The notes under the pieces: generated by a model
Database searches by the model: none
Told to the model about the DNA's origin: nothing
Seen by the model: the letters and a program-made list of their open reading frames with translations, nothing else
In this document: one piece after another, positions 4,777 through 39,372 of the stretch
How positions within the stretch are numbered: position 1 is the first letter of the stretch
How the letters are laid out: each line of letters opens with the position of its first letter
Program-made: the position numbers and the translations under genes
NCBI GenBank assembly: GCA_047946875.1
Contig: CP181398.1
Coordinates: forward strand, 463,818-527,817
Length of the DNA stretch: 64,000 nt
Source: Candidatus Kerfeldbacteria bacterium
Lineage (GTDB): Bacteria > Patescibacteriota > Patescibacteriia > UBA10025 > JAHIVO01
Direction: 5' to 3'

Positions 4777-6281
4777 TGCAAAATATATCATTTTTTGGAC
4801 AATACTTTAAAGTTACTTTTTGGATAATAGTTATATTCGAAATATTGTCTTTTTTAGGACATAATTTTAATATTGTAAATAGTATTATTTTTGGATTGTT
4901 AGTATTAACAACGTTAGTAATTACTATTTGGAAAGTTGAATTTGGATTTTGGATAGTCGCTGTCGAATTATTTATTGGATCTTTAGGATATTTATTTTTT
5001 ATAGATTTTGATGAATTTAGAATATCAATAAGGTTGGGGTTATTCTTAGCTGTGATGTTAGGTTGGTTAATAAATACAATTAGAACCAAAAAATTTGAAT
5101 TTTATAAATCGTACTATTGGAAACCATTGTTACTTTTAAGTGTTTTTCTTTTATTGGGATTAATTTTTGGGCTTAGAAATGGTAATGATCTAAAAGATAT
5201 TTTCTTTGATTTTAATGCATATTTATACTTTGGTTTAATATTTGTAGCATTTTCTGTAATTAAATCAAAAGAAAGAGTTAATAATCTTATACAAATATTA
5301 GTTGCATCAATTTCTGCATTATTTTTGAAAACTATATTTATATTATTTTATTTTTCTCATGTTTTCAATGAGAATTTGATAAGTATGGTTTATCGATGGA
5401 TTAGAGACACTAGAGTAGGGGAGATTTCTCCAATAGTAAGTAATTTCTATCGAGTCTTCTTCCAAGGGCATATTTGGGCTTTGTTTTTATTTGTAATTTT
5501 TTTATTAATTATTATTTTGTTGAATAAAGATCAAATTGGTAAAAGAAATTACATTTTTTCTTGGATAATTATGATTATTTCAAGTTTGATGATAATAATT
5601 AGTTTTTCTCGAAGTTTTTGGTTAGCACTATCAATAAATATCATATTAATTTTTTGGTATTTAATAAAAAAAGAAAAAATAAAGATTAAACAGGTTATAA
5701 AGATTCTTGTAATTTCATTATTAGTTTTAATTATTGAATTAGGTTTTATAACTGGACTCGTAAATATAAAATTACCTAACTTTGGAAATGATTCATCTGT
5801 ATCGATAGCTTCATTAATTAGAGATAGAATTTCGGATACTGATGAAGCTGCATTTGCAAGTAGATATGAATTGCTTAAACCGCTAACTTATAAATATTTA
5901 GAAAATCCATTTATTGGTTCTGGGTTTGGTACTACAGTGACATATGAAACAAAAGATCCAAGGAGTAAGGGTAACTATACTACTTATGCATTTGAATGGG
6001 GATATCTTGATATTCTAACTAAAATCGGTTTATTTGGATTCCTTGCTTATTTATTTTTTATATATAAAATATTTAAACAAGGGATTAACTTATTAAAAAT
6101 ATCTAGTAATAGAAATGAGTATGTCCTAATCCTCGGTTTACTATTTTCTTTGTGTATTTTATTATTAGTTCATATGACAACACCTTATTTGAATCATCCA
6201 TTAGGCATATTCCTATTGATAATTATTTCATCAATATTTTATAGTAAAACTACTCAACAATCTGTTAAACTTGAAGCTTGA
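4776..6281 (+). CDS. Polytopic membrane protein, O-antigen ligase/polymerase (Wzy_C)-like
   Basis: 501 aa with more than 10 predicted TM helices and a large extracytoplasmic loop near the C-terminus. It lies between two GT2 genes. The start ATG overlaps the upstream stop. Confidence 0.4.
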   Translation: MQNISFFGQYFKVTFWIIVIFEILSFLGHNFNIVNSIIFGLLVLTTLVITIWKVEFGFWIVAVELFIGSLGYLFFIDFDEFRISIRLGLFLAVMLGWLINTIRTKKFEFYKSYYWKPLLLLSVFLLLGLIFGLRNGNDLKDIFFDFNAYLYFGLIFVAFSVIKSKERVNNLIQILVASISALFLKTIFILFYFSHVFNENLISMVYRWIRDTRVGEISPIVSNFYRVFFQGHIWALFLFVIFLLIIILLNKDQIGKRNYIFSWIIMIISSLMIIISFSRSFWLALSINIILIFWYLIKKEKIKIKQVIKILVISLLVLIIELGFITGLVNIKLPNFGNDSSVSIASLIRDRISDTDEAAFASRYELLKPLTYKYLENPFIGSGFGTTVTYETKDPRSKGNYTTYAFEWGYLDILTKIGLFGFLAYLFFIYKIFKQGINLLKISSNRNEYVLILGLLFSLCILLLVHMTTPYLNHPLGIFLLIIISSIFYSKTTQQSVKLEA

Positions 6282-9114: not shown

Positions 9115-10122
9115 ATGTTTTCAAATAGAATCGCAATTGATTTAGGGACAACTTATTCTATAGTTCATATTCCAGGAAGAGGAATAGTAGTTAATGAACC
9201 GTCAGTAGTAGCAATTTCTTTGGTTGATAAAAAGGTAATGGCTGTTGGTAATGAGGCTAAAGATATGATTGGACGAACACCTAATACTATAGTTGCTTCA
9301 AGACCACTTAAAGATGGTGTTATTGCTGATTATAAGACTACTGAAGCGATGATAAAATACTTTATTAACAAAGCTTTAGGGGGTGTTAGGTTTTTCCGAC
9401 CTGAAGTTATGATCGCTGTACCCGCTGGAATAACCTCTACTGAGAGACGTGCTGTAATTGAAGCAACTCTTCAAGCTGGGGCAAAAGCCGCATATATCAT
9501 TAAAGAGCCCATAGCAGCCGCTATTGGGGCAAATATACCCATTGGATCAGCATCTGGACACATGATTGTTGATATTGGAGGCGGTACTAGTGAAATAGCT
9601 GTTATGTCATTAGGTGGCATAGTTGCAAATTCTTCAGTCAGAATCGGAGGAAATAAGTTTGATTATGCTATACAAGAATTTGTTAGAAAAAAATATAACT
9701 TAGCTATTGGGGAAAGAACAGCAGAAGAACTGAAAATCCAAATGGGATCAGCAGTCCCTGTTGAAGAAAAAATGTATATGGAAATTAAGGGAAGGGATTC
9801 AATTCAAGGTTTACCAAAAACTGTAACTGTTGAAAATAACGATATCCCTGAAGCAATTCAAGATGAGTTAGCTGGTATTATACAAGCAATTAAATCTGTA
9901 TTACAAGACACTCCTCCAGAGTTATCTGCAGATATAATGGATAAAGGTATGGTTTTATCCGGGGGTAGTTCATTGTTAAAAAACTTAGACATTCTTCTGT
10001 CAGAAGCAATTGGGGTACCTGCTTATGTTGCAGATGAAGCACAGCTATGTGTAGCAAAGGGTACAGGAATAGCACTAGAAAATTTAGAATCTTATAAAAA
10101 GAGTATTCTTTCTTCAAAATAA
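9115..10122 (+). CDS. mreB: Rod-shape determining actin homolog MreB (paralog 1)
   Basis: MFSNRIAIDLGTTYSIVHIPGRGIVVNEPSVVAI... carries the phosphate-1, phosphate-2 and adenosine motifs (DIGGGTSEIAV, LSGGSSLL). It is 335 aa. Confidence 0.85.
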   Translation: MFSNRIAIDLGTTYSIVHIPGRGIVVNEPSVVAISLVDKKVMAVGNEAKDMIGRTPNTIVASRPLKDGVIADYKTTEAMIKYFINKALGGVRFFRPEVMIAVPAGITSTERRAVIEATLQAGAKAAYIIKEPIAAAIGANIPIGSASGHMIVDIGGGTSEIAVMSLGGIVANSSVRIGGNKFDYAIQEFVRKKYNLAIGERTAEELKIQMGSAVPVEEKMYMEIKGRDSIQGLPKTVTVENNDIPEAIQDELAGIIQAIKSVLQDTPPELSADIMDKGMVLSGGSSLLKNLDILLSEAIGVPAYVADEAQLCVAKGTGIALENLESYKKSILSSK

Positions 10123-15247: not shown

Positions 15248-16309
15248 GTGGGAATATTTAATAACTTTTTTGGAAAATTTTCTAGAGATATGGGCATTGA
15301 TTTAGGTACTGCAAATACCTTGGTTTATGTTAAGGATAAAGGGATAATTATAAATGAACCTTCGGTTGTAGCTGTTAATACAAGAAATGATCAAATATTA
15401 GCAGTTGGCGAAGAAGCTCAAAAAATGATTGGTAAAACTCCTGCTCATATAGTTGCATCACGACCATTAGTTGATGGTGTGATCTCCGATTTTGAAATAA
15501 CTGAGAAAATGTTAAAATATTTTATTGACAAGGTTCATCGTGAAAGTTTTTCTATTTTGCCTAGACCACGAATTGTAATTGGTATTCCATTGGGTGTAAC
15601 AGAAGTTGAAAGAAAAGCAGTAGAAGATGCCTGTTTGAGTGCTGGTGCACGTGAAGTATTTCTAATAGAAGAGCCAATGGCTGCTGCTATTGGTGCAAGA
15701 ATGCCAATACAAGAAGCCACTGGTAGCATGGTAGTTGATATAGGTGGTGGAACAACAGAAATCGCTGTTATCTCATTAGGTGGAGTTATTACATGGAAGT
15801 CTATACGAATCGCAGGTGATGAGTTAGATAAAAATATTATACAATACGCCCGGGACCATTTTAATTTGTTGCTTGGAGATAGAACAGCTGAGGTTATTAA
15901 ATTAAAAATTGGATCTGCTTTTTCTTCTGAGGATCCTTTGACAACCACTATGAGAGGTAGAGATTTAATAACAGGTTTACCAAAAGAAGTAGAAGTAAAT
16001 AGTAATCACGTTCGTGAAGCAATTTCTAGATCATTAAGACAAATTATTGAAAATATAAAATCAACAATTGAAATAACACCCCCAGAATTAGTAGCTGATA
16101 TATTTGAAAGAGGTATAGTGTTGACCGGTGGTGGTGCTTTATTGAATAATTTAGATAAATTAATAAACCGTGAAACTAAAATACCTGTACATATTACAGA
16201 TGATCCTTTAACAGCTGTAGCAAGAGGTACGGGTATAGTATTAGATGACCTTGAAGCTTTAAAAGAAGTATTAGCTGATTCAGTTGATGCAAATACTTTT
16301 AAAAACTAA
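15248..16309 (+). CDS. mreB: Rod-shape determining protein MreB (paralog 2, in mreBCD cluster)
   Basis: MGIDLGTANTLVYV...VVDIGGGTTEIAV...LTGGGALL are present. It lies immediately upstream of mreC. Confidence 0.9.
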   Translation: MGIFNNFFGKFSRDMGIDLGTANTLVYVKDKGIIINEPSVVAVNTRNDQILAVGEEAQKMIGKTPAHIVASRPLVDGVISDFEITEKMLKYFIDKVHRESFSILPRPRIVIGIPLGVTEVERKAVEDACLSAGAREVFLIEEPMAAAIGARMPIQEATGSMVVDIGGGTTEIAVISLGGVITWKSIRIAGDELDKNIIQYARDHFNLLLGDRTAEVIKLKIGSAFSSEDPLTTTMRGRDLITGLPKEVEVNSNHVREAISRSLRQIIENIKSTIEITPPELVADIFERGIVLTGGGALLNNLDKLINRETKIPVHITDDPLTAVARGTGIVLDDLEALKEVLADSVDANTFKN

Positions 16310-28694: not shown

Positions 28695-28973
28695 TAACAA
28701 TAACCATAGATTGTAAAAGGGGAATCTGTGATTTTATTATTGACAATATTATAATCCTATAGTAAATTATTCGAATACAAGGATATTTAATTTTTTGGAG
28801 GGGCACATGTTTAGACTGTATGTCATGCAAATGTTTTTGAGAATGTACTACAGAATACTGTATGCAAATCAAAATACGACATCAAGTTTTCTCCAAGGAA
28901 AGAGAGGAAAAAACACATTACACAAAGGTGGTAGGCCTGATACGAAAGCCAAAGGAAGAAAGAGGAATTATTA

Positions 28974-29255
28974 ATGCTAATAAAATTTCTAAAATTCTTT
29001 GTCTGGGCGTTAGTACTATTGTCCATAATAGGAACGATCAATATACTAATTACAGGAAAGGGAATTATCACAGGAGAAGAAAAATCCCTGCTTGATAAGA
29101 TTGTCTGTATTATTCTAGATTTAATTCTAATCGGATTGAGTCTAATCCTATCTATCAAAAGATGGCATGAATACTACTATGACTTTGTTACTGACAAGTG
29201 GTGTGATTTCAAGTGGTTCATTGAAGAAAAATTCAACACCCTACGAAAAGGATAA
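28974..29255 (+). CDS. Small hypothetical membrane protein
   Basis: 93 aa with two TM helices. It is preceded by SD AGAGGA, and terminator 29274-29306 follows it. I preferred it over the overlapping ORFs 28862-29095 and 28823-29158. Confidence 0.4.
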   Translation: MLIKFLKFFVWALVLLSIIGTINILITGKGIITGEEKSLLDKIVCIILDLILIGLSLILSIKRWHEYYYDFVTDKWCDFKWFIEEKFNTLRKG

Positions 29256-29273
29256 AAAAAGAATAAAAACTTT

Positions 29274-29306
29274 GGCGCAGATAAATTTAAATCTGCGTCT
29301 TTTTTA
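29274..29306 (+). terminator. Rho-independent terminator
   Basis: GCGCAGATAAATTTAAATCTGCG hairpin followed by TCTTTTTTATTT. Confidence 0.6.
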
Positions 29307-29380
29307 TTTATATATATTTGTAACTTCTTACAAAACAGGGTAAGCTAATACAAAATGTTATTTCACAAAAGGAGGTCAAT

Positions 29381-29707
29381 ATGTATATCGAGACTGTTAT
29401 GCAACCAGAAGCTGCAAATATTATATGCAACAGCGAAGTTACTGTAGTTACATATATAGCAAACGATATGTGTACTGGCATTATTAAATCACAAAGTGAT
29501 AAATCAGAACTTTTGCGAATAGATATCAATGGCGGAACGACTGATGAAATGAACCTCGCTATGACCTCAATACTTAAAACTGTTCACTCACATGTGAATA
29601 GTGGTTCATGGGATGGAGGACCAATCGACATCCGTCTCGATACTGAGACTTCGGTTGCCGATGCACTAAGGCAAAATGGAGTCGTTATCATAAAAGACGA
29701 CATGTAA
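29381..29707 (+). CDS. Hypothetical protein (GC-elevated, island)
   Basis: 108 aa. A strong SD AAGGAGG lies 8 nt upstream, and a terminator follows at 29716-29747. Its GC is higher than that of the core genes. Confidence 0.45.
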   Translation: MYIETVMQPEAANIICNSEVTVVTYIANDMCTGIIKSQSDKSELLRIDINGGTTDEMNLAMTSILKTVHSHVNSGSWDGGPIDIRLDTETSVADALRQNGVVIIKDDM

Positions 29708-29715
29708 TATATATA

Positions 29716-29747
29716 AGTGTAAGGATTAATTCTTTACACTTTTTTAT
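29716..29747 (+). terminator. Rho-independent terminator
   Basis: AGTGTAAGGATTAATTCTTTACACT hairpin followed by a TTTTTTATTT run. Confidence 0.6.
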
Positions 29748-29811
29748 TTGATATTTCAAACTATTACTAAAAAGACAAATTCTTATCTTTGAACTTTCAA
29801 ATACAAACCAA

Positions 29812-29843
29812 TAAAAAAGAGGCGACTCAGGTGAGTGCCTCTT
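29812..29843 (-). terminator. Rho-independent terminator downstream of 29854-30381
   Basis: AGAGGCGACTCAGGTGAGTGCCTCT hairpin preceded on the plus strand by AAAAAA, which is a U-run on the minus strand. Confidence 0.55.
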
Positions 29844-29853
29844 GATAGAAAAA

Positions 29854-30381
29854 CTATTTTCCTACTATAGATGAAAGACCATATACAGCCCAAATTGGCA
29901 GATCACCCTTGAAATGAATCTTTACACTGAGGTTGCTTAACTCTGGCATACGAGCGAACTCTTTGATAACAAAGCCAAGTTTATTAACATAAGCTTCGCC
30001 ATTATCACATTCCCAATGTTGAGAGCCAGACAACTCAATAACTTGACATATATCATCACCGCGATCGGTAATATTACATTCAAACTGAGCGCCGCCCCAT
30101 TTAAAACATAGATCCAGCACCATAGAAAAAAACTTTTTATTTTCTTTTTCTTCTTGAATCAACAACAAGTAAGGTTCTTTGTCTGGGCTGGTCAATATAT
30201 GAACTATTGAATAGCTACAACTATCATATTCAAACTGAACCTCGACCGGTCCCATCATCCAAGCAGGGATACTCAATTCATCATATTCTGCTGAGGTGAC
30301 TGTAATCTCGTCTATAGCAAATACTGTACTTGCCAACAACAAGGTTAAAACAAACGCAAATGCAATTTTCAATGCCTTCAT
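29854..30381 (-). CDS. Secreted hypothetical protein (signal peptide, Cys-containing)
   Basis: 175 aa. The N-terminus MKALKIAFAFVLTLLLASTVFA is a cleavable signal peptide, followed by an acidic Cys-containing domain. Its GC is higher than that of the core genes. Confidence 0.5.
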   Translation of the reverse strand: MKALKIAFAFVLTLLLASTVFAIDEITVTSAEYDELSIPAWMMGPVEVQFEYDSCSYSIVHILTSPDKEPYLLLIQEEKENKKFFSMVLDLCFKWGGAQFECNITDRGDDICQVIELSGSQHWECDNGEAYVNKLGFVIKEFARMPELSNLSVKIHFKGDLPIWAVYGLSSIVGK

Positions 30382-30583
30382 GAATTCCTCCTTAACCTTA
30401 AAAACCTTAAGGAAATTTATATTAGTCTTTCGTTATGTAATGTGCATCTATAATTAACTTAACAAGTATTAATAACATATAAAGAGGGTAGTGTCAATGG
30501 TTGAATATATAATTTGACAATATATTGAAGACAGCCTAAGATTTGTATGAATGAGTTGAACTTTCAAAAAATATGGAGGCACG

Positions 30584-30937
30584 ATGACTATAATAAAATT
30601 TCTGATTATGGTTGGAATTTTTTACCTAGTTATGCAATTAGAGGGAATCGCTGATGACTATATTGAGTCATTTAACCTACCAGGATGGGTTAAGTTAATA
30701 CTAGGCTCAGGAGTCCTATATTTCTTTTTTCTGACCGATCATGTTGATGACTTTATCACTAAATATCTAAATCACTTCATTTTAGAAGAAACATGCGTAG
30801 CTCAGAATCAAGTGAATAAATTGATATTATCTTACCAAAAAAAATATGCTTTATTGGCCCTAGATAAAAAATCTAGTTTCAAAAACATTGTAAGATATAA
30901 TCTTCTGGACATGAAGCAAATACTTTCAAAAACATAA
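30584..30937 (+). CDS. Hypothetical membrane protein
   Basis: 117 aa. SD GGAGG lies upstream, two TM helices are present, and a terminator follows at 30936-30969. Confidence 0.45.
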   Translation: MTIIKFLIMVGIFYLVMQLEGIADDYIESFNLPGWVKLILGSGVLYFFFLTDHVDDFITKYLNHFILEETCVAQNQVNKLILSYQKKYALLALDKKSSFKNIVRYNLLDMKQILSKT

Positions 30938-30969
30938 CAGACTTTTAATAATAGAAGTCTGTTTTTTTA
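30936..30969 (+). terminator. Rho-independent terminator
   Basis: CAGACTTTTAATAATAGAAGTCTG followed by TTTTTTT. Confidence 0.65.
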
Positions 30970-31035
30970 TTAAATAAAAAATACACCCATGACTAAATAA
31001 ATATCACAGGTGTAAACTTTTGATCCAAGATCATA

Positions 31036-31368
31036 CTACCAAGTAGTATCGATTTGAGAAGCAGTAGGTAGTCTCTCAATAGTCAACTCGAATCCTTGCG
31101 AAGCCAACTCCGTTCTGAGGTTTTTAATGACCTCCGGTGTTTCTCCACAATACCCATCGACCGTTGCTACTCCGTTTTCCCATTTGGTTGCATTCAGGCC
31201 CATTGTTTCGAGAATACTCACAACCATTGATTGACATGCAAAAAATGATGGTATGGGTACTCCCTTAGAATTATCGATAATGATACCGACTTCAAATTTG
31301 CCTGAAGGCAATTCGGAATTGAGGATATCAACCTCATTTAATTCCTTAAGAACAATTACGTTTGACAT
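31036..31368 (-). CDS. Hypothetical protein
   Basis: 110-aa ORF with island-like composition. I recognised no motif. Confidence 0.4.
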   Translation of the reverse strand: MSNVIVLKELNEVDILNSELPSGKFEVGIIIDNSKGVPIPSFFACQSMVVSILETMGLNATKWENGVATVDGYCGETPEVIKNLRTELASQGFELTIERLPTASQIDTTW

Positions 31369-31478
31369 ACTAGCTCCATAACAGAATAGGATTATGTAAA
31401 TGATTCTTGGTTCTATGTTAAGAGTGCAAACAATATAGACTAGCAGGAGGGTTATACATTGTCAAGGTCTAACGAGTT

Positions 31479-31511
31479 AAAAAAAACCTCCTGATATATA
31501 TACCAGGAGGG
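31479..31511 (-). terminator. Rho-independent terminator downstream of 31540-31923
   Basis: CCTCCTGATATATATACCAGGAGG has a 7-bp stem. It is preceded on the plus strand by AAAAAAA, which is a U-run on the minus strand. Confidence 0.6.
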
Positions 31512-31539
31512 GATTCTTAATCACTTAAATGGATCTTTA

Positions 31540-31923
31540 TCAATTTTCACGAATAGCTACTTTAACTAGTTTTTCTTCATCATCAGTCAAATTCCTGATG
31601 AATCCATCTGGGCCATATAAGCCAGCTAAATAGGGATGTGAGTCATAAAGAATATTTCGCCCTGAATTTAAAAAAGTACTTTCAGCAAAACATTCAGCTA
31701 TCCACTCAGTATCATAAGTCCAAAGTAATCTGCAATTTAGTGTTTGGCTGTAGATGATCCTTTTTGTTCTCATGTTATAAACAAAAAATTGGTGCTCATC
31801 ACTATAACCAGTCCAAACAACTTTAATATCATCGTATTCCGATTGACCATTAATGAAATATCCGTCTGTAAAACTAGCTAATGTTTTTTCAAAATCATTT
31901 TCAAAAACTTCTGGCATTATCAA
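31540..31923 (-). CDS. Hypothetical protein
   Basis: 127-aa ORF, acidic and aromatic-rich. I recognised no motif. Confidence 0.4.
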   Translation of the reverse strand: MIMPEVFENDFEKTLASFTDGYFINGQSEYDDIKVVWTGYSDEHQFFVYNMRTKRIIYSQTLNCRLLWTYDTEWIAECFAESTFLNSGRNILYDSHPYLAGLYGPDGFIRNLTDDEEKLVKVAIREN

Positions 31924-32108
31924 CTCCTATTTTTATAAAGATCTAATTAAATAATCTTATTACAACGGTTAAGAGTAGTCAAATACGTCTTGACCCTCAA
32001 AAAGGCCTATGTTATGATATATATATAACTGCGTATAATAACTCTTACACTCAGTTATATACATAGGTAAATACCCTATTAACTATATGTATATATCCTT
32101 TACCGCTT

Positions 32109-32152
32109 GTCATTCCGGGCTTGTCTGTCCGCCTCAGGAGGAATCCGGAATC
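32109..32152. repeat. GC-rich hairpin repeat (left copy; inverted partner at 34265-34289)
   Basis: GTCATTCCGGGCTTG[tctgtccgcctcaggagga]ATCCGGAATC. Apart from the 19-nt insertion it is the reverse complement of GATTCCGGATCAAGCCCGGAATGAC at 34265-34289. It contains the ATTCCGG/CCGGAAT palindrome. Confidence 0.6.
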
Positions 32153-32187
32153 TCTGATATAATTAAAACGTTAACTAACTTCCAAAT

Positions 32188-33126
32188 ATGTCACTACCTT
32201 ACATAGATGATTATCTATTAAACCTCCAAACTAATAACTACTCTGAAAAGACCGTTTACAACTACGAACGCGATTTAAAGGTGTTTGAGGAATACTTGGA
32301 TAAAGAGTCAAAGAAGCAGTTTAACACGCTTAAAAGGCGCGATATTGAGCTCTACAAGGCCTATTTGGTGTCTAGGGATCGAAATACTGCCAAGGGTGAG
32401 AAAAGCCTTAAAAAGCTAAATGCTTACTCCATGAATAGGATGTTATCTGCCTTACGCTCGTACTTGAAGTATATGATAGATAATGATTATAAATGTCCTG
32501 TTAACCCTCAAATGATCCGTTTATCGAAGACTACTAAGAAGCATCCTCAAGTTGCAGAATTAGAAGATATTGTTAGGTTGATAGAGTCCCCATCAAAATA
32601 CGAGAAAGCCAAACACATAGCTCTTCGTAACCGCGCCATGATGGAAGTATTATTCGCAACTGGCATGAGAATCTCAGAACTGATAAACTTGAATAAGAAT
32701 CAGATAGATGCAACTGGAAAAATATTTATCGAAGGTAAAGGACGCAAGCAACGTTTCGTTTATATGACAGAGAGAGCAAAACTTCATACAGAAAAATATT
32801 TAAACTCTAGAGGAGATAATCACCCTGCTTTATTCATCCCCTACCGTGGGTCTAATGCCGGTTCTATAAATTCGCGCATATCGCCTAATTACTTACAAAT
32901 GAAGATAAAACAGTACCGAGAGCGTTTAAAAATTAATGTTCCAACCTCAGCCCATAGCTTACGTCACGGGTTCGCTACATACTTAGCTGAGTCAGGCGCC
33001 AACCCCGCCGCGATCCAAATACTCCTAGGTCACGAATCACTAGATACTACTACAAGATATGTAAATGCCTCAGATAAATTCGCCGAAAAATCTCACCGGA
33101 AATTCCACCCCCTAAAAAACAAATAA
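32188..33126 (+). CDS. Tyrosine site-specific recombinase, XerC/XerD family
   Basis: 312 aa. The C-terminal catalytic region ...SAHSLRHGFATYLAESGANPAAIQILLGHESLDTTTRYVNAS supplies the R...H..R..Y residues. An N-terminal SAM-like domain is present. Its GC is higher than that of the core genes. Confidence 0.85.
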   Translation: MSLPYIDDYLLNLQTNNYSEKTVYNYERDLKVFEEYLDKESKKQFNTLKRRDIELYKAYLVSRDRNTAKGEKSLKKLNAYSMNRMLSALRSYLKYMIDNDYKCPVNPQMIRLSKTTKKHPQVAELEDIVRLIESPSKYEKAKHIALRNRAMMEVLFATGMRISELINLNKNQIDATGKIFIEGKGRKQRFVYMTERAKLHTEKYLNSRGDNHPALFIPYRGSNAGSINSRISPNYLQMKIKQYRERLKINVPTSAHSLRHGFATYLAESGANPAAIQILLGHESLDTTTRYVNASDKFAEKSHRKFHPLKNK

Positions 33127-33250
33127 CACACTCTTGTCACTCTGAGCTTATGCGAAGAGTCCCCTGACCGCAGGTCAGGAGATACTTCACTTCGTTCAGT
33201 ATGACAATCTAAAATTTCATCCACTTAAAGATAAATAATATATCAATCAT

Positions 33251-33421
33251 ATGAATGAATATAATCCAATAAAACATGAAAAAGAAATCAAAAAAACACA
33301 AAAAAAGAATTCACCCTTTAAAAACGTTATTATTATTCTAATCATTATCGGACTTTTATGTTTCTTACCTTTAATGTTTTATTTTGTTATGTTTTTTCGT
33401 CCAGATAAGATCTTTGGTTAA
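33251..33421 (+). CDS. Small membrane protein (56 aa), not in ORF track
   Basis: ATG at 33251 opens MNEYNPIKHEKEIKKTQKKNSPFKNVIIILIIIGLLCFLPLMFYFVMFFRPDKIFG. The stop is TAA at 33419-33421. It is preceded by the repeat CCACTTAAAGATAAATAA at 33221-33238. Confidence 0.3.
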   Translation: MNEYNPIKHEKEIKKTQKKNSPFKNVIIILIIIGLLCFLPLMFYFVMFFRPDKIFG

Positions 33422-33519
33422 TTTGATTTCTTATTAAGTATTCTCAAAAAAATAATCATGCATTAAAAGAACTTCGCAAAAAATTTCACCCACTTAAAGA
33501 TAAATAATTAATTTACCAG

Positions 33520-33561
33520 CCGTAACTTCATGCGAAGGCTGGACCACTTAAAGATAAATAA
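33520..33561 (+). repeat. 42-nt direct repeat copy 1 (CCGTAACTTCATGCGAAGGCTGGACCACTTAAAGATAAATAA)
   Basis: It is nearly identical to 34178-34219. It ends 1 nt before the ATG at 33563. The 18-nt core CCACTTAAAGATAAATAA also occurs at 33221-33238 and 33490-33507. Confidence 0.65.
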
Positions 33562-33562
33562 T

Positions 33563-34084
33563 ATGAAAAAAATTAATGACAAAAGTATTCTAATAATTGA
33601 AATCTTTTTCATGTCTCTTGGTACTTTTTTTATTATTTCCTCCTTATTTATCCCAAAACTTTTTTCCTGGTTAACCATAAATTATCAATTTGAAGCACCC
33701 CATTTAGTTATTCTCATCATCGGGCTTGCGGGGGTAGGTTTTGCCTGGTATCACAACATTAGAACAACTAATTTTAAAAGGCAGGATCATCCTAAGCAAA
33801 TTAGTTCTATTACACAAAGCTTTGTTAATATTGGTATTACTACAGGAAATATTTTACTGGGATATTTACTTGGTATCTTAGTTACCTACGTCATTAGTAT
33901 TTCAATAACTGAAACTCAACGAATAGTGTTTGGAATAGGTATAATGATGATTTATACTTCCTTATTAGGAATATTTGCAAAAAAAGATAAACAAAAGTTT
34001 TTAATAATGGTTTTAATAACATTAATGATTGCATGGCTTCTATCTATCGTATCTGGTTTATTGGACAATGCAATAAATAATTAA
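33563..34084 (+). CDS. Hypothetical polytopic membrane protein
   Basis: MKKINDKSILIIEIFFMSLGTFFII... has four or more TM helices. I chose the start at 33563 rather than the track start at 33530, because 33530 lies inside the direct repeat. Confidence 0.45.
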   Translation: MKKINDKSILIIEIFFMSLGTFFIISSLFIPKLFSWLTINYQFEAPHLVILIIGLAGVGFAWYHNIRTTNFKRQDHPKQISSITQSFVNIGITTGNILLGYLLGILVTYVISISITETQRIVFGIGIMMIYTSLLGIFAKKDKQKFLIMVLITLMIAWLLSIVSGLLDNAINN

Positions 34085-34177
34085 ATTCTTTTATGCCTCA
34101 GACAGGTTCGCTGAGAAGTCCCATCATAAATATCACCCTCTAAGCAAAAAAGAATAATTAACTAACAACTTTATCCG

Positions 34178-34219
34178 CCGTAGCTTTATGCGAAGGCTGA
34201 ACCACTTAAAGATAAATAA
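34178..34219 (+). repeat. 42-nt direct repeat copy 2
   Basis: CCGTAGCTTTATGCGAAGGCTGAACCACTTAAAGATAAATAA. Together with the copy at 33520-33561 it brackets the membrane-protein gene. Confidence 0.65.
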
Positions 34220-34227
34220 CTTTATAA

Positions 34228-34299
34228 AACATCCCTCATCCTGAACTTGATTAAGGATCCCCGAGATTCCGGATCAAGCCCGGAATGACAAACTAATAA
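34228..34299 (+). repeat. ~75-nt dispersed element, intact copy (AACATCCCTCATCC ... hairpin ... GAATGACAAACTAATAA)
   Basis: It contains the inverted hairpin copy at 34265-34289 and ends 1 nt before the ATG at 34301. Degenerate copies lie at 38524-38611 and 40194-40208. Confidence 0.55.
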
Positions 34300-34300
34300 T

Positions 34301-35152
34301 ATGAATGAAAACAAGCAAAAAATTATTGAACGATACTACCAATATTCCACACCATATTTATTGAAATACTGGTCTGATAAGGAAAGTATGAGTATTCATT
34401 ATGGTTTTTGGTACCCAGAAACAAAATCGCGTAGCGAAGCATTCTTAAACCAACACCGCTCAGTAGTCGAACTACTACAACCTTCGGCTGATGATTATAT
34501 CCTAGATATAGGTTGTGGAGTCGGCGGCGTTTCTACATGGCTCGCACAGCATACACCAGCACGCTACGTCGGTATCACTCTCGCTGACAACCAAATCCGT
34601 ATGGCCCGACAATTAGCCCAACGTCGAAAAGTGGCAGACCGTACAGCATACAGCCGTATGGATTTTTTTAAAACATCTTTCAATGATAATACCTTTACTA
34701 AGGCATTTGCTATTGAGAGTATTTGTCACTCTTATCCACGCCAACTTGAAGTATTTCGAGAAATGTACCGTATCCTTAAGAAGGGAGCAACTTTACTTAT
34801 TTCTGATTCTGCCCTTTTTCGGCAAGCAACCGGAAAGCAAGAATTAAAATGGGTAAAAAATTTCTGTAACGGCTGGGCCATGACTGATTATAGTACTATT
34901 AATGACATTGTAATTTCTTTAAAAAAGGCGCAATTTAAAAATATACGAATCATCGACCGAACAAAGCTTGTCTCACGTAATATTAATCAAATTTATTGGA
35001 TCGGCATCTGGTCATATCCATTGTTAAAAATCAAGCAACTACTTGGCCATCTTCCAAAAATAGTATTAGGTAACAACCTGGCCGCAGTTACCCAAAAGAA
35101 GTTAGTTAATGCCGATCTGGCCGGATATTTTTCAATTATTGCTCACAAATAA
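34301..35152 (+). CDS. Class I SAM-dependent methyltransferase
   Basis: The glycine-rich SAM motif ILDIGCGVGGVS is present, as is the downstream acidic residue typical of the Rossmann MT fold. It is 283 aa. Its GC is higher than that of the core genes. Confidence 0.7.
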   Translation: MNENKQKIIERYYQYSTPYLLKYWSDKESMSIHYGFWYPETKSRSEAFLNQHRSVVELLQPSADDYILDIGCGVGGVSTWLAQHTPARYVGITLADNQIRMARQLAQRRKVADRTAYSRMDFFKTSFNDNTFTKAFAIESICHSYPRQLEVFREMYRILKKGATLLISDSALFRQATGKQELKWVKNFCNGWAMTDYSTINDIVISLKKAQFKNIRIIDRTKLVSRNINQIYWIGIWSYPLLKIKQLLGHLPKIVLGNNLAAVTQKKLVNADLAGYFSIIAHK

Positions 35153-36801: not shown

Positions 36802-37245
36802 ATGAAAAAAATTATTATCCCTCTCATCTTCATTAGCTTATTTATTATCATCCCATTAGTAAATGCAATTACCGTGGATTCAGCTTTAGGCACCAGTATG
36901 AGCGATGAACGAGTACCATATCCCGAATCCTCAACTATTAATGTAATGGATTTAATAATATTTTTCTTAATTATAATATCATTAATTAGTATAATTTATA
37001 GTATTATTTTTTTAATTACTACTAAATTAAAAATTAAAAAATTAACAATGAATAATAATCAAATACAATCTGAAAAAGAAATATCACCAGAATCAAAACT
37101 TGAATATGAAAAGTATAAAAAATTAACCAAACACTACAAAAGAATATTATTTGTTGGTTTAATAGTATTTATTGTAGCTGTAGCTTACGTGGTATTTATT
37201 ATTAATAATCCTTGCTGTAATTCACTTAATAGCGTTATATACTAA
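36802..37245 (+). CDS. Hypothetical membrane protein
   Basis: 147 aa with an N-terminal signal/TM segment, a central TM helix and a C-terminal TM helix. Confidence 0.35.
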   Translation: MKKIIIPLIFISLFIIIPLVNAITVDSALGTSMSDERVPYPESSTINVMDLIIFFLIIISLISIIYSIIFLITTKLKIKKLTMNNNQIQSEKEISPESKLEYEKYKKLTKHYKRILFVGLIVFIVAVAYVVFIINNPCCNSLNSVIY

Positions 37246-37310
37246 ATTTTATTCCCTACAAAAATAATTAAGAACGATTTAATAAATAAACTAAAAATAA
37301 AGAAAATAAT

Positions 37311-38523: not shown

Positions 38524-38611
38524 AACATAATCCTCTACCGTCCCTTGTTACTCTAATTCTAACAGCATAAAGGCTGGAATCTAGAACAATTCAAGAATGA
38601 CAAACTAATAA
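38524..38611 (+). repeat. Degenerate copy of the dispersed element (AACATAATCCTCTAC ... GAATGACAAACTAATAA)
   Basis: It shares its 5' 15-mer with 40194-40208 and its 3' 17-mer with 34283-34299. It lies upstream of an unrelated methyltransferase gene. Confidence 0.5.
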
Positions 38612-38625
38612 ATAATTATTTATTT

Positions 38626-39372
38626 ATGAAACTAAAAGAAACATTTAGTACAATTCCATTACAGTATGACAAAGTACGACCTGATTATCCCCCTACCCTT
38701 TTTCAGGATATTTTAAATTACAGTCAATTGAGTAAAAGTGATCCCATTTTGGAAATTGGTATTGGTACTGGTAAGGCCACGCTACCATTCGCCAAACATG
38801 GTAATCCTATTATAGCGAATGATATCAGCCGAGAATTAATTGGCGTAGCTAAAAATAAACTTAAAAATTACAAAAAAATTAAATATGTTGTCGGACAATT
38901 TGAAAAAATAATATTACAAAAAAATAAATTTGGACTTATATACTCCGCACAAACTTTTCATTGGATTAAGCCAAATATACAATTTACAAAAACCCACTCA
39001 TTACTCAGGCAAGATGGTGTGTTAGCTCTTTTTTGGAATCTAAATTATTATGATCAAGGTATCGGCAAGTGGGCTCTTAAACTCAATAAAAAATATTCTT
39101 CAGCAAAAAAAGGTAAAACACGATCTATTATACAACAATTTAAACGACACCGTCTTTTTAAAGATGCAATTATAAAAGAATACCGCCGTGAAATAGGAAT
39201 GAGCAAAATTAACTATATTAAAATGCAAACATCACATTCTTGGTACCTAGTACTATCAGATAAACGAAAACAGCTTGCTATGATTGATTTACAAAAAGCT
39301 CTTATTCATTACCCAAAAATCATAAAAATGCCAATAAAAACGATATTAGTAATGGCTAAAAAAAATAAATAA
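38626..39372 (+). CDS. Class I SAM-dependent methyltransferase
   Basis: ILEIGIGTGKATLPFA SAM-binding motif. It is 248 aa. Confidence 0.65.
   Translation: MKLKETFSTIPLQYDKVRPDYPPTLFQDILNYSQLSKSDPILEIGIGTGKATLPFAKHGNPIIANDISRELIGVAKNKLKNYKKIKYVVGQFEKIILQKNKFGLIYSAQTFHWIKPNIQFTKTHSLLRQDGVLALFWNLNYYDQGIGKWALKLNKKYSSAKKGKTRSIIQQFKRHRLFKDAIIKEYRREIGMSKINYIKMQTSHSWYLVLSDKRKQLAMIDLQKALIHYPKIIKMPIKTILVMAKKNK

Follow-up and report, generated by a model that had tools for sequence, protein, structure and literature searches.

We analysed a 64,000-nucleotide stretch of the genome of a Candidatus Kerfeldbacteria bacterium (contig CP181398.1, positions 463,818 to 527,817, forward strand; hereafter the window), in which a gene for an Xer-type tyrosine recombinase (xer) is followed by direct repeats and small open reading frames (ORFs). 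The repeats are displaced 3' ends of xer itself. They are of foreign origin, polar in their placement, restricted to one clade of the candidate phyla radiation (CPR, or Patescibacteria) and associated with variable cargo genes, and the gene they derive from has the sequence characters of a housekeeping Xer with its own dif-like site. From these comparisons we consider it fairly probable that the array grew by polar, serial acquisition of foreign segments, each consisting of an xer end and its downstream gene, at the 3' end of xer. The features concerned are the following, in window coordinates.

32188-33126, + strand: xer, a single Xer-type tyrosine recombinase of 312 aa (Pfam, NCBIfam and PDB matches, conservation in CPR).
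33212-33238, + strand: remnant A, AAATTTCATCCACTTAAAGATAAATAA, encoding KFHPLKDK-stop, near-identical to the native xer end of the related locus L001.
33251-33421, + strand: cargo ORF of 56 aa with one transmembrane-like segment, no homologue in related loci.
33460-33507, + strand: remnant B, ending in ALKELRKKFHPLKDK and the stop codon, 28/29 nt identical to remnant A.
33508-33543, + strand: spacer and hairpin H2 (CCAGCC-GTAACTTCATGCGAA-GGCTGG), 36 nt, fold z = -2.4, between two identical 18-mers.
33544-33561, + strand: remnant C, the 18-mer encoding PLKDK-stop, 1 nt ahead of the next ORF start.
33563-34084, + strand: cargo ORF of 173 aa with about five transmembrane-like segments, an orphan.
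34092-34157, + strand: remnant D, 22 codons, YASDRFAEKSHHKYHPLSKKE and stop (nhmmer E = 9e-13, tblastn E = 3e-4).
34158-34201, + strand: spacer and second copy of H2, recognised in the direct-repeat comparison.
34202-34219, + strand: remnant E, an exact 18-mer encoding PLKDK-stop in the in-frame translation.

The 18-mer CCACTTAAAGATAAATAA encodes P-L-K-D-K-stop, that is, the 3' end of xer. Four exact copies are present, at 33221, 33490, 33544 and 34202, always on the + strand, and no further copy exists in the 64 kb even with three mismatches (shuffle mean 0.46). The Xer protein ends in RYVNASDKFAEKSHRKFHPLKNK and stop (the 'N' tail), and the native end used in the comparison with the remnants is ASDKFAEKSHRKFHPLKNK and stop. 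All-frame translation reveals five in-frame remnants of this tail, of 5 to 22 codons, 3' of the intact gene, where they separate two orphan membrane-protein ORFs; the in-frame translation of the long remnant D is also given as ASDRFAEKSHHKYHPLSKKE and stop. With a nucleotide profile of 135 native xer ends, remnant D gave the nhmmer E-value listed above, and remnants A and B (9-16 codons) were the next-best matches in the 64 kb. Remnants C and E are identical over 18/18 nt and belong to a longer direct repeat (33501-33571 and 34159-34229) with 82% identity over 71 nt. A sequence-only reading of this window had proposed that direct repeats delimit gene-sized units. The hairpins, 18-mers, ORFs and repeats that it listed are all present and the proposal holds; since the repeats are xer 3' ends, the units are delimited by displaced xer ends. 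That reading had missed the coding origin of the repeats, the additional remnant at 34092-34157 and a palindrome at 32018-32065. The 18-mer is not a genome-wide promoter or leader motif: it is confined to this locus in the 64 kb, being absent from 27 upstream and 15 further-downstream genes.

The 173-aa cargo ORF has a sole match among 5.8 billion proteins, namely itself, and neither cargo ORF has a homologue in 1.5 Mb of related loci. Farther out, a possible decayed xer tail (KFYSLQK-stop), doubtful, is seen at about 37244-37270, right after a gene ending at 37245. At 38577-38611, an AT-decayed hairpin head and ACAAACTAATAA, 77% identical to 34265-34299, precede a gene at 38626. The two may be older scars. 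Nothing beyond them supports an array reaching to 45 kb, and we do not adopt that extension.

We applied the tail profile to 142 non-redundant CPR loci, of which 17 have at least 75% Xer identity to the window and about 125 (1 Mb) are more distant. The 17 close-clade genomes contain 13 extra tail copies, every one of which lies 3' of xer and on the xer strand; no copy is on the opposite strand, and the upstream side gave two noise-level matches alone. The roughly 125 more distant loci likewise yielded only scattered noise-level matches. The remnants always retain the stop codon, and the following ORF mostly starts within about 20 nt. Their 5' edges are ragged, leaving 5 to 35 codons, and the last 15-18 nt or so are common to all. 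A tail-like peptide lies within 75 nt of the ORF start for 20/97 downstream ORFs of the close-clade loci vs 2/64 upstream ORFs. The tail and the gene next to it thus behave as one unit.

The content of these units differs between genomes. In L004, xer is followed by a 166-aa NYN-like ORF and then by a 29-codon remnant, and in L108 by two membrane-ORF blocks, each with a 23-35-codon remnant behind it. One to four remnants each are found in L081, L085, L088, L003, L005 and L007. Membrane-protein ORFs lie between the native tail and the remnants in L081, L108, L003 and L088, and a reverse-strand ORF does so in L085. In L168, xer is followed by the H2 hairpin, a short tail and a TIR gene (CAP12-PCTIR); genes of this defence-effector-like type appear early after xer in L168 (7002-7856), L169 (7520-8371) and L005 (6206-7051). 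Tails are also repeatedly accompanied by members of two families of small membrane proteins, whose distance from xer varies between genomes.

The window and L086, whose Xer proteins are 94% identical, contain the same modules in a different order: a 75-nt hairpin element (69/73 nt), the H2 unit (55/63) and the N tail with its following sequence (36/36). The working xer end of the window is a downstream remnant in L086, and the L086 copy of the 75-nt element follows a different xer tail. This permutation points to deletion or permutation by recombination among tail copies. Together with the equivalent units that hold different genes 3' of xer in close relatives, it makes the array cassette-like and variable. 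The variable gene content and the cassette-like part of the earlier proposal of a "cassette or shufflon-like" system are therefore borne out. Its shufflon part is not: the tail copies are all direct (13 on the xer strand, 0 on the other), only two hairpins discussed below are mutually inverted, and no inversion of the array is seen in relatives, in all of which xer and its flanks keep one orientation.

Two side observations concern the extent and context of the array. The contigs of L082-L084, L086, L089 and L167 stop 85-206 nt past the xer stop, inside hairpin or tail repeats, and the only other contig returned for the same species stops 85 nt past xer, which suggests assembly breaks caused by repeats or strain variation. 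Within the window, the 32-45 kb region encodes accessory-type functions (three methyltransferases, two YfbR-like HD proteins, NUDIX, HAD, GNAT, zincin and glycosyl hydrolase), and homologues of these genes stand in a different order 3' of xer in relatives.

The nature of the differences between tails indicates that the copies are foreign. For five long remnants compared with the resident native tail, we counted 50 synonymous and 26 non-synonymous codon differences; the 35-codon remnant of L108 shows 17 synonymous and 0 non-synonymous ones. Differences mostly at third positions mean that the copies diverged as working genes in separate lineages, and thus that one of them was imported. Remnant D matches the native tail of L086 at 48/56 positions, whereas the native tail of the window does so at 50/64. 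The displaced copy is likewise the closer one in L108 vs L112, as read from the listed tail sequences. A remnant closer to a relative's native tail implies that the displaced copy is the vertically inherited one and the working end the newcomer. In a sliding comparison of xer between the window and L086, identity is about 95% in the middle of the gene but falls to about 78% over its final 120 nt, a drop that is suggestive of a swapped end, though not decisive.

The same data make it highly improbable that the repeats arose by tandem duplication and decay of the xer end in place, or by a metagenome assembly artefact joining strain variants. The agreement of A with B (28/29 nt) and of C with E (18/18) would fit such an origin, as would the contigs of the closest relatives that break directly past xer; from these near-identical pairs, some copies probably did arise by local duplication. 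The long remnants, however, differ mainly synonymously, which requires separate evolution as working genes. The junctions between cargo and remnant are moreover unique sequences, observed across different studies in over 10 independent assemblies, and the window itself belongs to a 1.31-Mb contig.

According to the explanation that we favour, the 3' end of xer would have become a polar insertion point in one CPR clade. An incoming segment would start inside the 3' end of a donor xer and bring along the donor's downstream gene. After its integration the resident xer would read through a new, foreign C-terminal end, and the former end, with the gene following it, would be pushed downstream as a remnant with a ragged 5' edge, its stop codon and the start context of the accompanying gene being retained. 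Repetition of this event would stack units of tail remnant and small gene. Recombination between tail copies could then delete or permute units, and may restore an old remnant as the working end. As to the joining itself, we infer recombination anchored in conserved xer sequence, homologous on the left, with a right joint that would either be illegitimate or fall within a tail already present; tails would then serve as portable homology arms. After a first scar in the clade ancestor, existing tails would supply the right-hand homology, which fits the restriction of the array to one clade.

Several points weigh against this explanation. None of the about 15 remnants is longer than 35 codons, and all preserve the 3' end exactly. 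If the right joint were purely illegitimate, long remnants would be expected as well, unless they were trimmed later; a site-specific event within the last codons would produce just such clustering. The H2 unit of 36 nt (33508-33543) lies between identical 18-mers, and H2 with a short tail follows xer tails in three genomes (the window, L086 and L168) with its junction at the same codon; this combination looks like a defined insertion product. Homologous recombination is inefficient at about 80% identity over 60-100 nt. The events are deduced from end states, no circular intermediate, empty site or population variant having been seen, and the search for repeat copies and recombinases covered the 64-kb window of a 1.3-Mb genome.

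Some of these points would be accounted for by integrase-less satellite cassettes that use the last 15-20 nt of xer as their chromosomal attachment site (attB) and are served by a recombinase in trans. Besides a core that matches this site, such cassettes might contain further xer sequence; they would enter and leave site-specifically, newcomers pushing older ones outward. Together with the H2 unit, the direct repeats of the target-gene 3' end that flank each inserted unit, with xer left intact, agree with this idea, as do the last 5 codons and stop kept in every remnant. We nevertheless hold it to be rather unlikely. The 64-kb window and the arrays of the examined relatives contain no second recombinase. 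The tail DNA is conserved no more than its coding requires, the His, Pro and Leu codons varying freely. The 5' edges of the remnants are ragged, and isolated xer tails, which could represent the phage-side site (attP), were not found on viral contigs.

A related proposal, that the xer 3' end is a dedicated site-specific gene-capture site of one CPR clade, with Xer or a hairpin-recognising enzyme as the catalyst, appears unlikely to us. Each mini-cassette would then combine a short xer-end core with a single ORF (often for a membrane or defence protein) and, in some cases, a GC-rich hairpin, and would enter and leave at a fixed position. If true, this would be a functional integron analogue built on the dimer-resolution module of minimal-genome bacteria. 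Nothing shows that Xer catalyses array formation: Xer half-sites at the unit borders are not enriched (7.3 vs 7.7 per kb background, 32100-34300). With moderate confidence, we favour recombination anchored in conserved xer sequence over catalysis by Xer, and rank a site-specific integrase acting in trans second.

The array of serially acquired segments appears, by analogy, to follow the principle of islands at gene 3' ends, with xer itself as the target and single small genes as the units. In islands at tRNA genes, new elements displace earlier ones outward, and fragments of the tRNA gene lie dispersed within the island. The xer array shares with tRNA/tmRNA-targeting elements and the tycheposon islands of Prochlorococcus the partial target 3' ends, the intact target, the newest unit nearest to it and the accessory or defence-type cargo. 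Unlike them, it targets a protein-coding gene, the cell's own Xer; its units are tiny (0.05-1 kb, often one ORF), its remnants are ragged, and no element-borne integrase is seen.

A second class of repeats at this locus consists of GC-rich hairpins that resemble miniature inverted-repeat transposable elements (MITEs). Three copies were delineated.

32107-32152, + strand: GC-rich hairpin element with a TTGTCA head and the stem ATTCCGG/CCGGAAT, between the dif-like site and the start of xer.
33134-33208, + strand: MITE-like element of 75 nt, terminal inverted repeats TTGTCACTCTGAGC/GTTCAGTATGACAA, hairpin CCTGACCGCAGGTCAGG inside, fold z = -3.96.
34229-34291, - strand: MITE-like element, reversed, whose head (34265-34291) is the exact inverse of 32107-32123 plus 32143-32152.

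The left hairpin at 32109-32152 is composed of GTCATTCCGGGCTTG, a 19-nt loop insertion and ATCCGGAATC. The uninterrupted 25-mer occurs once in the 64 kb, as the exact reverse complement at 34265-34289 (zero expected by chance), and the inverted identity runs over 17 nt (TTGTCATTCCGGGCTTG, 32107-32123 vs 34275-34291). The inner hairpin of the 75-nt element lies at 33163-33179. The elements are 45-75 nt long and share the head TTGTCAYWCYGRRC and the terminal inverted repeats TTGTCAYWCYGRRC ... GTTCAGNATGACAA. All four hairpin heads (4/4) of the window are in the 2.2-kb xer locus, three of them within 500 nt of the gene. In close relatives, heads are enriched about 15-fold within 500 nt of xer, mostly in the gap that separates the start codon from the dif-like site, or just past the stop, and hairpins of the same family fill that gap in L082, L086, L088, L003, L004 and L168.

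The terminal inverted repeats, the small size, the multiple diverged copies, the stable hairpins and the non-coding location are those of MITEs and repetitive extragenic palindromic (REP) elements. Unlike these, the three window copies show no target-site duplication, the family has no known parent element, no transposase being seen in the window, and its copies are strongly concentrated within 500 nt of xer. No Rfam match was obtained in 27.4-35 kb, and a function as intrinsic terminators was discarded because there is no T tract. The inverted hairpins had been taken to bracket a recombinase module. They are opposite-orientation copies of a MITE-like family that clusters at xer in several relatives, and not demonstrable ends of a mobile module; no relative has the module inverted or transposed. 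In terms of the explanation that we favour, the hairpins would have spread into the non-coding gaps both 5' and 3' of xer, and two of them would bracket the module by chance. At a distance from the array, in + strand ORFs at 9475-9617 and 15641-15783, the window holds another direct repeat (143 nt, 71% identical, 6.2 kb apart), probably reflecting paralogous genes.

The recombinase itself comprises a Phage_integrase domain (PF00589, E = 8e-33) and an N-terminal SAM-like domain (PF02899), and its catalytic domain has the R..HxxR..Y signature of the Xer type. Its top NCBIfam models are XerC, XerD and XerA, each scoring under the equivalog cut-off; it also scores beneath the XerS cut-off. The nearest structures in the PDB are XerA (4a8e) and XerD (1a0p). 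Identity is 62-70% across CPR phyla (Sung-, Azam-, Uhr-, Davies-, Kaiser-, Nomura- and Kuenenbacteria), and this conservation throughout Patescibacteria indicates a core function. A tblastn search of the 64-kb window found no second recombinase or xer paralogue; a weak profile match at 45.6 kb falls within a radical-SAM RlmN-like gene. Upstream of xer we identified two further features.

31990-32018, + strand: promoter-like TTGACC-17 nt-TATGAT (with TG), 10/12 matches, directly 5' of the dif-like site.
32028-32055, + strand: dif-like site ACTGCGTATAA-TAACTC-TTACACTCAGT (11-6-11), a palindrome 130 nt 5' of xer.

The site has two inverted arms of about 11 bp around a short centre, as expected of dif, and extends to a palindrome at 32018-32065 with 21-nt arms (86% complementary) and a 6-nt spacer. 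The motif is present once in the window. Among 141 non-redundant CPR loci, 125 carry it, 110 of these 125 within 200 nt 5' of xer, and none has two such sites. The consensus is (T)AACTGAGTATAA-TATCTC-TTATACTCAGTT(A), with variants in the central region. The asymmetric 6-bp centre is found in both orientations relative to xer, which argues against the motif being a mere promoter element; the TTGACC...TAnnAT layout also precedes the palindrome in L001, L005, L081, L082, L085, L086 and L168.

Of 71 loci with at least 4 kb on each side, 51 have genes that converge on xer and 0 have genes that diverge from it; GC skew changes from + to - at 37 of them and in the opposite sense at 0. The cumulative G-C curve of the window reaches its maximum at 27.1 kb, is flat to 30 kb, declines slowly to 46 kb and then steeply, and gene orientation switches at about 45 kb; the dif-like site lies inside this turning zone, where a terminus site is expected. 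Around it, 25300-46400 includes 19 kb of skew-neutral DNA between the 27.1-kb peak and the fall at 46 kb, with the genes of 32-45 kb all on the + strand.

The locus thus has the sequence organisation of an Xer/dif-type module (promoter, dif-like site and a single xer) at the replication terminus. Because of the CPR-wide conservation, the adjoining dif-like site and the convergence of skew and gene orientation, we conclude that the recombinase is the housekeeping single Xer of Patescibacteria, predicted to serve chromosome dimer resolution. The sequence-only reading had held that it was not a plain housekeeping xerC, a view these results contradict. Grouping with housekeeping Xer proteins was an outcome that this reading had itself named as refuting it; the companion condition, no other Xer copy, holds within the 64-kb window. 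The reading had also suggested looking elsewhere for a dif-like site as the mark of the chromosomal Xer, and such a site exists, directly 5' of this very gene.

In the known single-recombinase systems (XerS/difSL of streptococci and lactococci, XerH/difH, XerA/dif, XerL/dif), the terminus module likewise has arms of about 11 bp and a short centre, and in xerS/difSL the site is tightly linked to the recombinase gene (PMC5357621). The CPR site combines the gene linkage of xerS/difSL with the 11-6-11 architecture of classical dif, its centre being 6 bp and not 11 bp as in difSL. The protein is a separate, CPR-wide single-recombinase Xer lineage, and the xer-dif linkage adds to these systems. We found no description of dif or Xer in CPR, Patescibacteria or Saccharibacteria in the literature.

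Variants of the module were noted in some relatives. In L003, a partial second dif centre and right arm (CTCTTACACT), joined to a TTGTCA hairpin head, lies at 5770-5800, about 60 nt 3' of the complete site. L169 (4420-6942), L069 and L072 encode an additional Xer-like recombinase (32% identity to Xer) alongside a DUF8371 gene, both placed between the promoter/dif-like site and xer; the palindrome of these three genomes has unlike arms, ACGTCGTATAA-TATATG-TTAAGCGATGT, and the arrangement may be a two-recombinase variant of the Xer/dif-like system. On the other side of the site, between it and a conserved DUF4342 gene, the window has four to five ORFs without a Pfam match (28695-31990). The corresponding stretch measures 0.45-3.3 kb in relatives and differs in content, which makes the DNA 5' of the dif-like site variable too.

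Accessory DNA tied to the Xer system is a trait shared with integrative mobile elements exploiting Xer (IMEX) and the pdif modules of Acinetobacter. Unlike those, no unit of the array is bounded by a dif-like site, each locus having one such site. An IMEX-type integration followed by deletion was rejected, as no tandem dif-xer intermediate occurs in 141 loci.

The array also invites comparison with an integron, in which Xer would insert cassettes at the end of its own gene (the analogue of attI) and the hairpins would act as attC-like folds. An Xer-related recombinase adjoins repeats and small ORFs, mostly orphan or accessory, that form a one-directional array co-oriented with it; hairpins stand at several unit borders, followed by a short conserved core and the next ORF start; and the downstream accessory genes are shuffled among relatives. 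We judge an integron-like platform decidedly unlikely, however. The Xer is the conserved housekeeping enzyme, whose own canonical site lies 130 nt upstream of the gene, and the Xer of about 125 other CPR genomes comes without such an array. A comparison with IntI, which had been suggested earlier, gave no sign of integrase-specific features: the integron-integrase model TIGR02249 scores 81 bits vs a cut-off of 265, and NF011946 44 vs 435. No RYYYAAC/GTTRRRY pair 40-160 nt apart, as in attC cores, is found on either strand of 33101-34320. The borders lack dif-like half-sites, those of L004, L081 and L108 lack a hairpin, and the codon at the hairpin-to-tail junction varies between genomes. Unlike in an integron, the repeats are pieces of the recombinase gene, and the array lies 3' of that gene and is co-oriented with it.

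CPR bacteria, whose genomes are tiny, have to our knowledge few recognised mobile elements and no genetics in culture, and the locus bears on how they exchange accessory and defence genes. The candidate dif site, found CPR-wide, could mark the replication terminus in metagenome-assembled genomes. The xer end is a clade-specific hot spot for the accumulation of foreign units of one gene each (TIR, NYN, small membrane proteins). Each insertion leaves a datable scar, the displaced gene end, and the scars record the order and the donors of the transfers; should insertion turn out to be site-specific, they would establish a new mechanism of gene capture.

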